From IMG/VR virus record IMGVR_UViG_3300050343_000261: a DNA stretch of 64,000 nucleotides; one strand, given 5' to 3'. Positions 49,619 to 54,412 of this stretch are shown piece after piece. This DNA comes from a virus. Below the pieces are notes generated by a model. It saw only the letters and a list, made by a program, of their open reading frames with translations, had not been told where the DNA came from and ran no database searches. Numbering within the stretch: position 1 is the stretch's first letter; every line of letters starts with the position of its first letter. A program made the translations under genes and the position numbers.

Positions 49619-50420
49619 GATATGCCAAGTACGCAGCACCCATGGCAGTGCCTCCATCGTTTGCTAGTGGTTCTGCATAGAACCTGTGATCAGGGAATCT
49701 TCCCAATGCTTTGTAGTTTGCTACACAATTCAAGAAACATCCCCCTGCAAAGACAATATTTGTTGTAGGTGCCATACGGATCAGTTCTAACACCCTCTCT
49801 TCCCACTCTGCCTGCAAAGACTTGGCAGGTTCAGAATCATAAACACTCTTCCCCATAACCTTACCTGCATCCATGTAGTGCCATCCATATTGAACGCATG
49901 CCTCTTCAAATCTCCTACCAAAACCAATATTATCAGGAGAGAACATGGTCTTATGAATTACACCCCAAGTGGGAGCAAAGAAAATAGATTCTATCTCTAG
50001 ACCTTCAGGTGTCTTTGATCCATTAGAATCAACAACAATACAAGTGGCAGTCTCAAATCCTGAGTTGTAGAAACCACATGCAGCGTGTGTCATATGGTGC
50101 TTCTTTCTGTAGTCATACAGTGCGGCACCAGGAAACTTTCTCTTGACAGCAGACAACATCTTGATGTTATCAACCTGCTTGTTACCACGTTTCCAAAAGG
50201 AATCTGCCAAAGCAATGTGCTCTATTCCCTCAGGCAACATATCAAGTAGAGACCTGATGTCATAGTCATACTTTACATAGGAAACACGCTCTGCCTCCAG
50301 GTACCAAACAGGTTTACCATCCTCAAGTAGACAAGCAGATCCATTATTAGACAGGTTCAACCCTAGGAGCAAATTTTTTGCCCGAGTTTTTTTCCCACTT
50401 TTCTGTAAATGAAAAGTCAT
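49605..50420 (-). CDS. Carbamoyltransferase N-terminal (Kae1-like) module 2
   Basis: LGLN.S.NGSACL..EAER.S..K, HH.THA..GFYNS, GKVMG, GGCFLNCVAN, NDGGTAMGAA. Confidence 0.88.
   Translation of the reverse strand: MTFHLQKSGKKTRAKNLLLGLNLSNNGSACLLEDGKPVWYLEAERVSYVKYDYDIRSLLDMLPEGIEHIALADSFWKRGNKQVDNIKMLSAVKRKFPGAALYDYRKKHHMTHAACGFYNSGFETATCIVVDSNGSKTPEGLEIESIFFAPTWGVIHKTMFSPDNIGFGRRFEEACVQYGWHYMDAGKVMGKSVYDSEPAKSLQAEWEERVLELIRMAPTTNIVFAGGCFLNCVANYKALGRFPDHRFYAEPLANDGGTAMGAAYLAYHGIN
50370..50396. repeat. Dispersed T-tract/CCCGAG/T-tract motif, copy 2
   Basis: caaattttttgcccgagtttttttccc, inside the 5' end of a CDS. Confidence 0.6.
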
Positions 50421-51013
50421 TTTCGCACCAGCTTTCCAACCTCTGGAAAGTATAGGTATGGTATATCAGACTCATAGAATGTTTTGAATGCATCCTGCGG
50501 AGACTCTACTAATGGTTCACCTGCCAGGTTGAATGAGGTGTTGAACAGCATTGGGATGCCTGTCTTGTCCCAGAATGCACTGATTAGTTTGTAGTAGTGC
50601 TCGTTCTGCTGCTCAGTAACAGTTTGAATACGACAAGTCTTGTCGATGTGCAGGACACCTGGAATCAAATGCCAACCAGGTGGACGTGCATCCATGGCAT
50701 ACATCATGAACGGAGACTCGTCAAGTCCACGCATGTAAAACCAATCGTTTGCATATTCAAGCATGACACTGGCAGCAAATGGTCTCCAGTGCTCACGCTT
50801 TTTGATTAGATTGACGGTCTTCTGTGCTTCATGATCACGAGGATCATACAACAAAGATCTATTTCCAAGAGCACGAGGACCTGCCTCTGATCTGCCTTGG
50901 AACAATGCAACCACTTCTTTACCTGCGATGATGTCTGCTACATCTTTGTAAGTTACATCGTCACCGTCAACAAAGGAGAGATCGTATTCAGGACCGAGGT
51001 ACAGTGTTCTCAT
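50417..51013 (-). CDS. Carbamoyltransferase C-terminal (YrdC-like) module
   Basis: QGRSEAGPRALGNRS, KREHWRPFA, H.DKTCRIQTV, NTSFNLAGEPLVESP. Confidence 0.93.
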   Translation of the reverse strand: MRTLYLGPEYDLSFVDGDDVTYKDVADIIAGKEVVALFQGRSEAGPRALGNRSLLYDPRDHEAQKTVNLIKKREHWRPFAASVMLEYANDWFYMRGLDESPFMMYAMDARPPGWHLIPGVLHIDKTCRIQTVTEQQNEHYYKLISAFWDKTGIPMLFNTSFNLAGEPLVESPQDAFKTFYESDIPYLYFPEVGKLVRK

Positions 51014-51980
51014 AATGTTCCAATAGAGCAGAACCGATGGCAAGACCGCCATCATAAGCAAGGGGATCTACATACAAATTTATACCAGTTTTTAGGAGAT
51101 GATGGTTAGCAATACAGTTGAGGAAAAATCCTCCTGTAAGAACCACGTTCTCCTTACCGGTCAATTCATATGCTTTCTCAAGCATGAACATAGCATGTTC
51201 CTCAGCAGACTTTTGTAGTCGATATGCTAAGTCTTCAGGGTGCCACTCATGCCCAGTATACCTGGTGGTATTACCTTCTGGACTGAGTTCAGTAGAGCAC
51301 ACGCTATGCCCATTGTCAATCTCAAATAGATCTATAGGTGCTGCACCGTAGGTGGACAGACCCATGGTCTTACCAGCATCAGTTTCATCAAACCCACAGT
51401 ATCGTGACACTCTACGATACGCCTGACCAACGCTGGTCCTATTGCTGTAAAAGTTTTTACCGTCCCAGAAAGAAGAATCTAACTTTTTAGACTCATCTTC
51501 GCTCCAGAACGTAGAGTAATGTTTGAAGACTGACTCAAACTTTCCGTCGTTTACGTCAAAAATACTTTCAGTCTCACAGAACTTCAGATCTTTATGATGG
51601 TGTAGAGAACCTTTACCATCCATGACGATGACAGCAGCATCTTTGAACTCAGAGTTGTAATATGCATTCGCTGCATGGCATTCATGATGCCTGTCACGAT
51701 AATCTTTTAGTGGAAGTCCTTTTTCCTTGACTAGATCAATGATTTTGTTTGCCTGCTTGGTTCTAAACAGGTATTTTTTCAAATTATATGTGGTATAGCA
51801 GTCACATATAGTGACCACACCAATAGAATCATCTAAAAATTGAGTCGCAGCAGTCAGAGCAGATCGATCTCTCTTGACACGACTCAATCTTTCTTCTTCA
51901 ATGTAGAATTGAACCTCACCATCCTCAAGGATGGCAAGAGACCCATTATGCGACAGATTTATTCCGCAGATTCTACCCAT
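50988..51980 (-). CDS. Carbamoyltransferase N-terminal (Kae1-like) module 1
   Basis: GINLSHNGS..EEERLSR.K, HHECHA..YYNS, VMDGKG, GKTMGLS.YG, GGFFLNC.AN, DGG.AIG. Confidence 0.92.
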   Translation of the reverse strand: MGRICGINLSHNGSLAILEDGEVQFYIEEERLSRVKRDRSALTAATQFLDDSIGVVTICDCYTTYNLKKYLFRTKQANKIIDLVKEKGLPLKDYRDRHHECHAANAYYNSEFKDAAVIVMDGKGSLHHHKDLKFCETESIFDVNDGKFESVFKHYSTFWSEDESKKLDSSFWDGKNFYSNRTSVGQAYRRVSRYCGFDETDAGKTMGLSTYGAAPIDLFEIDNGHSVCSTELSPEGNTTRYTGHEWHPEDLAYRLQKSAEEHAMFMLEKAYELTGKENVVLTGGFFLNCIANHHLLKTGINLYVDPLAYDGGLAIGSALLEHYENTVPRS

Positions 51981-52761: not shown

Positions 52762-52790
52762 ATTATAAAACAAAAAAGGGAAGGTGTCAA
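52762..52790 (-). promoter_or_regulatory. Perfect sigma70 promoter TTGACA-N17-TATAAT
   Basis: -35 at 52785-52790 (in the terminator loop), -10 at 52762-52767. Confidence 0.8.
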
Positions 52791-52800
52791 ACCTTCCCTT
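52772..52800 (-). terminator. Intrinsic terminator after the riboswitch/peptide operon
   Basis: AAGGGAAGGT-5nt-ACCTTCCCTT stem followed by T run on the minus strand. Confidence 0.8.
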
Positions 52801-52834
52801 AGTTATACAAGATCATTTGTCTAACAAATGTATC

Positions 52835-53002
52835 TCACCTTTTGTAAGTGCTTCCACGATAGCAGAAAGTCCCATGAGACTCTTTGCTTTCTACACAACG
52901 TGTGTCATACTCCACTCCACGGTATGTGGTGTGATGAATTTGTGCGTTGTGAAGAGCAGATGCTTTGACGATCTGCTTCTGGATCATTTTTAGTGTGTTC
53001 AC
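52835..53002 (-). CDS. DUF4278-like YRG-repeat peptide (55 aa)
   Basis: GGAG SD + GTG start; MNTLKMIQKQIVKASALHNAQIHHTTYRGVEYDTRCVESKESHGTFCYRGSTYKR has two YRG.xY motifs. Confidence 0.8.
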   Translation of the reverse strand: MNTLKMIQKQIVKASALHNAQIHHTTYRGVEYDTRCVESKESHGTFCYRGSTYKR

Positions 53003-53036
53003 TGTAGGTACTCCTAAAGTAGTTGGATTTTTAGGT

Positions 53037-53218
53037 CCGTTCCTTTAGTCGTTTGCGTCCCAATAACACTCAGGAGTTGCCTCCTTCATGGTCTCTACAA
53101 GTTCAACTTTCAACGAAAGAGGAAGATCCTCATTCGCTTTCATCCGTAGCATAATGCTATCGGCTTGCTGACATGTGAGCGAGGTATACAGTAGTATATC
53201 AAGCATTGGGATGAACGG
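53037..53218 (-). promoter_or_regulatory. Glutamine-II (Downstream-peptide)-like riboswitch copy 2 with an ORF in its P2 loop
   Basis: 5' arm CCGUUCAUCCCA (53218-53207); 3' arm UGGGACGCAAACGACUAAAGGAACGG (53062-53037); P1 CCGUUC/GAACGG and P2 UCCCA/UGGGA. Confidence 0.65.
53045..53206 (-). CDS. Small peptide (53 aa, MLDILLYTSLTCQQAD...TPECYWDAND) nested in the riboswitch
   Basis: Hand-translated open frame; the last five codons and stop are the riboswitch 3' arm. Confidence 0.75.
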   Translation of the reverse strand: MLDILLYTSLTCQQADSIMLRMKANEDLPLSLKVELVETMKEATPECYWDAND

Positions 53219-53220
53219 CT

Positions 53221-53261
53221 CCGTTCCGCGACTTACTTGCGTCCCCGAAGGGATGAACGAT
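53221..53261 (-). promoter_or_regulatory. Glutamine-II (Downstream-peptide)-like riboswitch copy 1
   Basis: AUCGUUCAUCCC-UUCG-GGGACGCAAGUAAGUCGCGGAACGG: P1 CGUUC/GAACG, P2 with UUCG tetraloop, GACGCAAG core; TATAAT at 53277-53282 upstream. Confidence 0.7.
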
Positions 53262-53299
53262 TCGCATGATGTTATATTATATAGAAAAGAACATCAGCA

Positions 53300-54412
53300 T
53301 CAATTGCTAAGTCTCTTCTTTCCGCAGTAGTCCGCACAGATGTGTGGTCTACTACTCCAAGAGTCTACCAGAGTATGCTGAAAAAAGGGAGTCTGTAAAA
53401 CATCTTGTAAGGATTGATGCTCTAGGGAGATGGTTTTGATACCACCCTGCTCCTCTATCAAAGGGATCACGTTGTCCCAAAAGACCTGCTGCATATACTC
53501 TGCACCCACTCCCTTGTTTGGGTTTTTGATGTCACGGAAGACAGCAGGTGCATCAGGGTCATTATCAATATAATATCCAGGATAGAAAAACCTGAGACGT
53601 GACTGATGGAAGCAGCAAGCATGCACCACACCCCTACTATCGATCCTCAGTTGACCAGGACTACCTTTGCTATGCTTATAGCGGCACACCACCTCTGAGT
53701 CCTCTGCTACGGGTTCTGGGTGGTACACATGGTCAGGATCGTCTGCTACCTGTAGGGTATGCACCTTATCTCGGTATGAATACGTAAATTTACCGTCACC
53801 ACGACCACTAGCGTCATACATATCATTGACCCGAGTATGCTGAAAGTCTTTGAACTTCCATAGTTTACTCAGCGTCTTACATCTTTTTATCTGATGTTGG
53901 TTGTGTTTGAAGACTAGCATCCTCCAAACAGCAGGACCACCTGCCGCAATGAATGCTTTAGCACTCCTCATTACTTTCTTATAGTCCACACCTACACGGT
54001 AATGCTGCAGTGTATCTTCTAGACCATCAATAGAAAAGATGAGGAAACTATCTTTATGTGATGCTCCCATGAGAGCACCAAGTCTTCCCCAAAATGCATC
54101 GTCACGAGTGCCTCCATTGGTACTCATCTGGAAAACAATATTGGGATTTGACTTTAGAGTATAGGCATATATTTCAAGCAGATCATCACACAATGTAGGC
54201 TCACCAAAAGACCCTTGGAAGTAGATCAACTCTGTCTTCTCAAGGGTTTTTTGAGGGAACCATGTCTTCCACTGATCAAGAGAGATCTTTGACAAGTTCA
54301 TTGATGGGTCAGGTGCAAGCACCGCAACTTCATCATTGTATGATGTCTTATGCCTAGCACACAGAGGACACTTGGAGTTACAATGATCTGTTAGATCAAT
54401 GAGAAACTTCAC
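53300..54412 (-). CDS. Radical SAM protein with SPASM/twitch-like C-terminus
   Basis: CNSKCPLC, GSFGEPT, STNG, FSIDGL..Y.YR.G, C..VHACC..C...C. Confidence 0.9.
   Translation of the reverse strand: MKFLIDLTDHCNSKCPLCARHKTSYNDEVAVLAPDPSMNLSKISLDQWKTWFPQKTLEKTELIYFQGSFGEPTLCDDLLEIYAYTLKSNPNIVFQMSTNGGTRDDAFWGRLGALMGASHKDSFLIFSIDGLEDTLQHYRVGVDYKKVMRSAKAFIAAGGPAVWRMLVFKHNQHQIKRCKTLSKLWKFKDFQHTRVNDMYDASGRGDGKFTYSYRDKVHTLQVADDPDHVYHPEPVAEDSEVVCRYKHSKGSPGQLRIDSRGVVHACCFHQSRLRFFYPGYYIDNDPDAPAVFRDIKNPNKGVGAEYMQQVFWDNVIPLIEEQGGIKTISLEHQSLQDVLQTPFFQHTLVDSWSSRPHICADYCGKKRLSN

Follow-up and report, generated by a model that had tools for sequence, protein, structure and literature searches.

We analyzed the leader of a short peptide gene in a 64,000-nucleotide stretch of viral DNA (IMG/VR record IMGVR_UViG_3300050343_000261), which we call the window; the element under study lies at positions 53259-53037 of the minus strand, and all coordinates below refer to that strand. 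A first-pass annotation had read this leader as two tandem glutamine-II-like riboswitches, the second of which would hold a translated open reading frame (ORF) in the loop of its P2 stem. In the reading that we consider probable, this is instead an early phage mini-operon with a double-core glutamine riboswitch, folded around a gene, as its leader. The glutamine-riboswitch sequence that the first-pass annotation recognized is present and the ORF does sit inside a stem, but the two repeats do not behave as independent tandem units in relatives, and the family is closer to Glutamine-I than to Glutamine-II.

The sequence features listed by the first-pass annotation were all found on the minus strand, with correct letters and coordinates. 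Following a TATAAT (53281-53276), the first compact aptamer unit (53259-53221) reads CGUUCA-UCCC-UUCG-GGGA-CGCAAGUA-AGUCG-C-GGAACGG, and thus has the form CGUUCA-hairpin-GACGCAAGUAAGUCGCGGAACGG. An AG dinucleotide separates it from a second 5' arm, CCGUUCAUCCCA (53218-53207), and this arm, CGUUCAUCCCA, leads directly into the AUG (53206-53204) of a 53-codon ORF. The partner 3' arm, UGGGACGCAAACGACUAAAGGAACGG, is located 143 nucleotides (nt) downstream at 53062-53037 and codes for W-D-A-N-D-UAA, so that the last codons of the ORF, UAU UGG GAC GCA AAC GAC UAA, also spell the rest of repeat 2. In the second P2-type hairpin, which we call P2b, a complete gene (53045-53206) takes the place of the tetraloop and occupies the entire loop. 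The 5' strand of P2b, UCCCAAUG (53204-53211), includes the start codon of this gene, and the 3' strand, UAUUGGGA (53058-53065), consists of its codons Y-W-D.

We parsed 119 repeat junctions in relatives. The second CGUUCA and the second GGAACG were 160-215 nt apart in 104 of these, while the remaining 15 had a plain hairpin of 32-47 nt. The ORF was intact in all 104 inserts, which encode 95 distinct proteins of 49-66 amino acids. Its start codon fell 9-16 nt after the C of CGUUCA, at +10 in 92 of the 104 loci, and its stop codon was the UGA or UAA inside CGAC-UGA in 99 and a UAG in the 3' stem strand in the other 5. Among 37 distinct 53-codon alleles (codons 2-48), entropy at codon positions 1, 2, and 3 was 1.05, 0.51, and 1.41 bits, and the ratio of nonsynonymous to synonymous polymorphism (pN/pS) was 0.47. 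In the last five codons of the same alleles, which overlap the aptamer core, third positions were fully invariant; this is the signature of an RNA constraint acting on top of the coding constraint. A GGAG resembling a Shine-Dalgarno (SD) sequence precedes the AUG by about 10 nt in 101 of the 104 ORF-bearing loci and in none of the 15 compact ones. The protein has an invariant cysteine at position 12 and a nearly invariant one at position 47, and it belongs to PHROG 504 (E 1e-27), a family of unannotated function. Given the intact frame in every insert, the coding pattern of substitutions, the restriction of GGAG to ORF-bearing loci, and the PHROG match, the comparative evidence indicates that the nested ORF is a real gene. 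AlphaFold2 models the protein as a two-helix hairpin (predicted local distance difference test score 81.6); this model had no match in the PDB at E ≤ 0.001, the protein had no Pfam match, and homolog searches returned only 17 unnamed clusters, with ESM Atlas likewise yielding unnamed clusters only. Public annotations start this gene elsewhere. In Syn33_196 (locus L002, 478-717), the coding sequence begins at an upstream GTG and runs through repeat 1, and in SRSM4_012 of phage S-RSM4 (locus L004, 597-752), the annotated GTG start lies 39 nt 3' of the conserved stem AUG; in ACG-2014j, the nested gene was left unannotated.

The long-range stem that encloses the ORF is real. Across the 104 ORF-bearing loci, P2b positions 1-4 (UCCC.../...GGGA) were paired in 100%, with C-G changed to U-A at positions 3 and 4 (3 and 16 loci, respectively) or replaced by U-G or A-U, and the fifth pair was kept in 84%. 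The same stem is present in the unconstrained minimum free energy (MFE) fold of the window leader computed with ViennaRNA, as an 8-bp UCCCAAUG/UAUUGGGA helix spanning the ORF. This fold, at -81.8 kcal/mol, was lower in energy than all 200 shuffles (z -2.89), and it also contains a GAACG-GAGC-CGUUC hairpin and a CUAAAG/CUUUAG helix, to which we return below. Covariation and codon analysis across cyanophage homologs, which the first-pass annotation had suggested as checks, thus revealed compensatory changes in the stem, a coding signature in the gene, and conservation of the split arms. Taken with the sequence conservation and the Rfam matches reported below, the stem pairing and the fold energy place the arrangement well outside what random sequence would produce.

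How the two repeats pair with each other is less apparent from any single copy. The four P1 strands (the 5' and 3' strands of repeat 1, followed by those of repeat 2) are usually identical, so variants were needed to decide the topology; in the window itself, the four strands fit either pairing. We therefore gathered variant loci without any constraint on the closing bases and parsed 297 of them. Listed in the order of strands 1 to 4, the closing bases were C,G,C,G in 179 loci, C,C,G,G in 97, U,C,G,A in 10, and U,G,C,A in 1. The other 10 loci had A or G first; 7 of these are mis-parsed 5' arms and 3 are a real outer A·G mismatch. Strand 2 can pair with strand 3 in all 297 loci and strand 1 with strand 4 in all four of the base combinations given above, whereas the pairs that a tandem arrangement needs (strands 1-2 and 3-4) are both broken in 108 of the 297. 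The outer P1 closing pair changes from C-G to U-A in 11 relatives although its two bases are about 220 nt apart, and the inner closing pair is swapped from G-C to C-G in 107. On a tree built from flanking coding DNA, independent contrasts were concordant in 4 of 4 well-supported cases and in 12 of 12 overall. RNAalifold, applied to 12 compact loci, predicted the nested fold de novo.

With these cross pairs kept while the local pairs break, together with the RNAalifold result and a match to the Rfam glnA model that spans both repeats (described below), we propose with high structural confidence that the RNA forms a nested fold, in which an outer glutamine-I junction holds a circularly permuted inner core inside its P3. 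The outer P1 would pair CGUUC (53255-53259) with GAACG (53042-53038), as in the Rfam glnA alignment of compact relatives and the RNAalifold prediction. Within it lie the P2a hairpin of the outer core (UCCC-UUCG-GGGA, 53242-53253), in which compensatory changes affect 4 of 5 pairs among relatives, and the P3 helix, formed by AGUCG (53229-53233) and CGACU (53051-53047). The P3 strands align to P3 of RF01739 in compact relatives and are paired by RNAalifold as well, and in 23 of 24 loci with P3 variants, pairing persists through transitions compatible with G-U wobbles. The inner core consists of P3, the P1' hairpin GAACG-GAGC-CGUUC (53213-53226), which is closed by a 2-4 nt linker and is the hairpin seen in the unconstrained MFE fold, and P2b. 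It lacks an E-loop; CGCAAA (53052-53057) is its equivalent of J2/3. The first-pass annotation had noticed the complementarity of AGUCG and CGACU and proposed an inter-aptamer pseudoknot. The complementarity holds, but with strands 1-4 and 2-3 paired across the repeats, these bases form the ordinary P3 helix of the outer glutamine-I junction.

The competing arrangement, in which two glutamine aptamers lie in tandem, independent of each other and each with a P1 of its own, the ORF is in the second loop, and a kissing pseudoknot joins AGUCG and CGACU, seems to us improbable. Single repeats are indeed aptamer-like (24-34 bits to RF01739 or RF01704), and tandem glnA RNAs are on record (PMC2864571). 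Against this arrangement, both local closing pairs are mismatched in the 108 relatives mentioned above with the cross pairs intact, each repeat by itself would have only half an E-loop, the 2-4 nt linker acts as a hairpin loop, and the Rfam alignment that spans both repeats is about 10 bits better than that of a single repeat.

To assign the family, we used natural ORF-less relatives as the equivalent of a loop deletion. In 7 of 10 such relatives, RF01739 (Glutamine/glnA) scored 38.4-42.9 bits, above its gathering score of 35, in one alignment running over both repeats; P1 is formed by CGUUC of repeat 1 and GAACG of repeat 2, P2 is hairpin 1, and P3 is AGU(CG)/(CG)ACU around an interior of 39-48 nt. 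Taken alone, single repeats reached only 21-34 bits. The E-loop is divided in the same manner, with its AGUA half in repeat 1 and its GAA half in repeat 2. The crystallized glutamine-I aptamer reads ...GGAAGUA-AGGCCC...GGGCCU-GAAG-CAACG, with the E-loop GAAGUAA/UGAAGC (PMC5393176), and its phage counterpart reads ...GCAAGUA-AGUCG...CGACU-(G/A)AAG-GAACG. In the window, AAGUA stands 5' of AGUCG and AAAG stands 3' of CGACU; GAAG takes the latter position in 72 of 107 relatives. The junction CGCAAGUA (53234-53241), which provides the putative ligand-contact G (within CGC) and the 5' half of the E-loop (AGUA), fits both the Rfam glnA consensus CGGAAGUA and the GGAAGUA of the crystal construct (PMC5393176). 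The other side of the outer core (53037-53046) comprises the 3' half of the E-loop, AAAG, the P1 3' strand, and G53037, which is likely the long-range "linchpin" partner of C53239. This capping pair is C...G in 302 loci, and in one relative (L090) it is swapped to G...C across the repeats. By sequence comparison with published contacts (PMC6698751), both cores retain the nucleotides that touch the ligand in the solved structures, namely the first two P1 pairs (C:G and G:C) and the junction G. Covariation in P2a, P2b, and the outer P1, wobble-compatible changes in P3, and the RNAalifold prediction all agree with a P1-P2-P3 three-way junction.

Membership in Glutamine-II (RF01704) was considered and rejected. 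The first unit of the window scored 24.0 bits against that model, under its threshold of 33, and relatives scored 20.8-34.0 bits, always below their spanning RF01739 match. Furthermore, the GGAACG that would take part in the Glutamine-II pseudoknot does not lie in a hairpin loop here, but closes P1 instead. Since the glnA model reaches 38-43 bits across both repeats of ORF-less relatives and the E-loop halves fall in different repeats, sequence comparison places this family nearer Glutamine-I than Glutamine-II.

Downstream of the aptamer, the output gene (52835-53002, GUG start at 53002) encodes a 55-amino acid, probably IF17-like (DUF4278) peptide with two YRG motifs, in keeping with the YRG peptide that the first-pass annotation had named as the output. 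The protein scored 23.3 bits against Pfam PF14105 (DUF4278; E 8.5e-5), just under the cut-off of 25.3, and matched PHROG 545 (E 3.6e-33); a DUF4278 match at E ≤ 1e-3 was found for 45 of 60 phage relatives. An anti-aptamer strand (53011-53019) connects this gene to the aptamer. Its CUUUAG (53019-53014) overlaps the SD sequence AGGAG of the DUF4278 gene (53015-53011) and pairs with CUAAAG (53048-53043), and the combined CUUUAG-GAG begins 18 nt past the 3' end of the aptamer. In general terms, the last two P3 bases, the 3' half of the E-loop, and the first P1 G make up CU(G/A)AAG, the complement of the (C/U)UU(C/U)AG that overlaps the DUF4278 SD. The stop codon of the nested ORF is the U(G/A)A within CU(G/A)AAG. 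We examined this anti-SD helix in 107 loci. Its middle pair was G-C in 49, G-U in 22, and A-U in 35, with one G-A mismatch; A-C was never observed, against about 16 cases expected if the two sites were independent. The helix was fully paired in 103 of the 107 loci (shuffle mean 88, maximum 97).

In the Synechocystis gifB switch, which lies upstream of an IF17/DUF4278 gene, glutamine is proposed to free a masked ribosome-binding site (RBS) and so turn expression on (PMC6212724, PMC6698751). By analogy, the covarying anti-SD helix fits a glutamine ON switch for DUF4278. The predicted OFF fold of the window leader (-81.8 kcal/mol) lies about 5 kcal/mol below the constrained nested ON fold (-77.0 kcal/mol), a gap that ligand binding could plausibly bridge. 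In several relatives of the lineage with the outer U-A pair (L207, L215, L245, and others), an extra conserved hairpin, GGAUCCUG-loop-CAGAG, stands past GAAACGG and before the DUF4278 start, which suggests a different or additional expression platform.

The placement of the nested gene leads us to favor, as plausible, a reciprocal or coupled switch with two outputs. Glutamine would stabilize the outer P1, E-loop, and P3, and in doing so draw CUAAAG out of the anti-SD helix and turn DUF4278 translation on. The GGAG of the nested gene (53222-53219) sits within the P1' hairpin, where it is made up of the last G of P1', the presumed capping G, and the linker, and its AUG sits in P2b; the folded sensor should therefore occlude initiation of the nested gene. 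The bound fold would hide both signals, and the nested gene would be translated chiefly from the unfolded sensor. A ribosome on the nested gene would in turn melt P2b, P3, and the outer P1 and so block sensing, and on terminating at the anti-SD strand it would leave the DUF4278 SD transiently open. Because an aptamer stem encloses a translated gene, nitrogen sensing and translation would compete on one RNA, and the two outputs of this RNA, opposite or coupled, would be governed by glutamine and by ribosome traffic. A fuller version of this scheme, which we put forward only tentatively and regard as rather less probable than the riboswitch reading as a whole, has both nested cores binding glutamine; the bound fold would have DUF4278 on and the inner gene off, and ribosomes on the inner gene would veto sensing and couple their termination to DUF4278 initiation.

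Several points weigh against the double-core riboswitch reading and the switching scheme built on it. The reading is drawn from sequence comparison and predicted folds. Nothing in the whole window reached an Rfam gathering score; a scan of the native sequence, another check that the first-pass annotation had suggested, gave only sub-threshold matches of unit 1, the better being 28.9 bits to RF01739 (E 5e-4, gathering score 35), and the window reads AAAG in place of the GAAG of the glnA consensus. As P1 and P3 hardly vary, the topology depends on one closing pair per helix; the well-supported contrasts number only 4, for a formal p of 0.125, and the two inner covarying bases, about 9 nt apart, could have spread together by recombination. 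The nested and tandem folds hardly differ in nearest-neighbor energy (-77.0 and -76.5 kcal/mol), which is also a point in favor of the tandem arrangement. With regard to the switch, P2b is closed in the ligand-free MFE fold as well, and the nested AUG may thus be hidden with or without ligand; that the folded state represses the nested gene is a direction that we infer from the placement of its start signals. With regard to Rfam, the arms of the window are 50/55 and 31/32 identical to those of L031, an ORF-less relative that scores 41.4 bits, and given the 143-nt insert and the inner core, the window copy is beyond the reach of the covariance model. The sub-threshold matches in the window, along with the departures of the phage cores from the glnA consensus (CGC for CGG and AAAG for GAAG), would also suit an explanation in which the arms are kept for protein binding, RNA processing, or as a recombination signal and the phage element no longer binds glutamine. 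We consider this explanation very improbable, as the glutamine-contact nucleotides are retained in both cores, compact relatives exceed the curated threshold, and validated glutamine riboswitches have the same association with DUF4278 and the same RBS-release platform.

Next, we characterized the layouts found in relatives. About 25 loci have an ORF of 65-76 amino acids (PHROG 6471) in the P2a loop too, for example L026:3951-4148; carriers of a P2a-loop ORF include L014, L019, L022, L026, L035, L036, L058, and L063. The geometry is that of P2b, with the AUG in the 5' stem strand and a UGA, UAA, or UAG in the 3' strand or in AAGUAA. Hairpins 1 and 2 were both compact in 12 loci, compact and ORF-bearing in 73, both ORF-bearing in 23, and ORF-bearing and compact in 1. 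The PHROG 6471 family is homologous to the family in hairpin 2 (hhalign 95.6%, E 1.3e-8), with cysteine aligned to cysteine, which suggests duplication or exchange of a unit made of an aptamer arm plus a gene. A single-core form also occurs (L132:500-670), in which the promoter is directly followed by CGUUCAUCCCAUG-ORF-UGGGACGCAAACGACUAAAGGAACGG with no first repeat, and CGACU is left without a P3 partner; a deletion joining the two CGUUCA repeats probably gave rise to this form.

The variety of layouts, including the 12 loci with no ORF, and the homology of the two gene families are what one might expect if the riboswitch controlled DUF4278 only and the small gene were a mobile or shuffled cassette in a tolerant loop, its overlap with the aptamer having no regulatory purpose. 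The identical flanking arms are favorable to recombination, and the tips of P3 and P2 point outward in the solved structure. We nonetheless regard this explanation as unlikely, though clearly less so than the tandem arrangement. One geometry is shared by both loops and by every subfamily, with the AUG in a stem strand 9-11 nt past CGUUCA, the stop codon in the opposite strand or junction, and no untranslated region whatsoever; the GGAG linker tracks the ORF (101/104 versus 0/15 loci); and the stop codon belongs to the covarying anti-SD helix. A passenger-cassette origin is possible, yet the physical coupling stays, since translation would have to melt the sensor whatever the origin of the gene.

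The whole transcription unit is about 500 nt long, self-contained, and flanked by a radical-SAM gene and a block of this T4-like cyanomyovirus genome that contains thyX. It is preceded by a sigma-70-type promoter, TTGATG-16 nt-TATAAT (53276-53303), with 10 of 12 consensus matches, and the transcript probably starts about 7 nt 3' of this promoter, about 10 nt ahead of the aptamer. No NtcA box of the form GTA-N8-TAC was found near the promoter (53290-53340 inspected). The unit is closed by a strong intrinsic terminator (52766-52800) with a 10-bp stem followed by a T tract. A second promoter with perfect sigma-70 consensus (TTGACA-17-TATAAT, 12/12; 52762-52790) overlaps the loop and tail of the terminator of the mini-operon and is directed into a small ORF (52773-52603, PHROG 878) and thyX (52606-51959). 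Farther along, two overlapping ORFs in different frames occupy 50417-51980, one of 330 amino acids (51980-50988) and one of 214 (51061-50417). We take these to resemble the N- and C-terminal portions of a single carbamoyltransferase-type enzyme; the pair may represent a frameshift, a sequencing error, or a split gene.

To determine how widely the element occurs, we searched viral and cellular sequences. The block is conserved in 422 cyanophage records at 70-95% identity (blastn of 52780-53330, E down to 1e-90), an exact-pattern scan gave at least 120 matches in IMG/VR, and a protein-anchored scan with the DUF4278 peptide gave 530 viral loci. An exact 18-mer scan of 185,579 prokaryote genomes, which detects exact words and not diverged cellular copies, found the element only on phage-like, phage-sized, or misbinned contigs. 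Four element-bearing contigs carry cellular names (L354, L359, L361, and L365), among them a 188-kb contig of a Nonlabens isolate, a 194-kb contig of a "Synechococcus" metagenome-assembled genome, and contigs of Euryarchaeota TMED129; phage DNA has probably ended up in these cellular genomes through binning or co-assembly. The layout is thus common to hundreds of cyanomyovirus genomes and metagenomic contigs, and it is missed by covariance-model scans.

It was already known that glutamine riboswitches exist, that they can occur in tandem, and that T4-like cyanophages carry them (PMC2864571, PMC9964418, PMC9602691). A survey from 2017 counted just two glutamine aptamers among cyanophage genomes and concluded that phages rarely use riboswitches (PMC5473149). 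In a full-text literature search, whose scope did not include Ames and Breaker 2011, we found no gene inside a glutamine aptamer stem and no nested double core; the first-pass annotation had likewise treated an ORF in such a loop as not known to be described, and the element appears to be an undescribed glutamine-I riboswitch variant with nested cores and a gene inside its stem. Riboswitch aptamers are usually viewed as compact, untranslated sensors. If our reading is true, the leader would be an example from nature in which ligand sensing and translation contest the same helices, and possibly one in which a single RNA has reciprocal outputs. It would also give a handle on how cyanophages read the nitrogen status of their hosts, through glutamine and a peptide resembling a glutamine-synthetase inhibitor, and it would mean that searches for structured RNAs should permit gene-sized loop insertions. 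Should both cores bind ligand, an aptamer would have a protein-coding gene as one of its structural loops, and the nitrogen response during infection would be reciprocal and gated by translation.

Finally, we compared the element with known systems. With Glutamine-I riboswitches, such as the Synechocystis gifB leader and the crystallized Synechococcus aptamer, it shares a three-way junction with a P1 of CGUUC/GAACG, a P2 hairpin, an E-loop of the AGUA/GAA type next to P3, and a CG(N) junction, as well as a position upstream of a gene of probable DUF4278/IF17 type and an RBS-masking helix that competes with the 3' side of the aptamer. It differs in that its P3 is not a hairpin but is closed by a second, permuted sensor-like core, one of its P2 stems spans 143 nt of coding gene, and its linchpin pair is C-G rather than G-C. 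Glutamine-II (RF01704), including Yfr6 of Prochlorococcus, has the same sequence blocks (CGUUCA...GGG(A)CGCA...GGAACGG) and CGC junction, occurs in the marine picocyanobacteria that are hosts of these phages, and also controls short DUF4278 peptides; Yfr6, moreover, is an "RNA" later found to contain an ORF. However, Glutamine-II lacks both P3 and the E-loop and folds into a pseudoknot that involves a 3' hairpin loop, whereas the phage element has P3, an E-loop, and a P1 that is a normal closing helix, and the ORF of Yfr6 lies downstream of the aptamer, while that of the phage lies inside a stem.

Tandem riboswitches, such as tandem glnA and glycine RNAs, resemble the phage leader in having two similar units per leader, possibly with two ligand sites and a sharper response, but in the phage one unit is inserted into the P3 of the other, the P1 strands are swapped, and P3 is shared. 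Translated upstream ORFs are known in expression platforms, as in the B12/RpfB switch of M. tuberculosis and in classical leader peptides, where translation affects folding and downstream expression. Unlike those ORFs, which lie downstream of an aptamer, the conserved phage gene of 49-76 amino acids is within the aptamer stem, and the two strands of that stem contain the start and stop codons of the gene. In T4-like phages, group I introns carry homing-endonuclease ORFs in peripheral loops, and the phage leader likewise places an ORF in a peripheral loop of what appears to be a functional structured RNA. In contrast to these introns, the RNA described here is a putative riboswitch in an mRNA leader, its ORF does not encode an endonuclease, and fold and translation would take place on the same mature mRNA.

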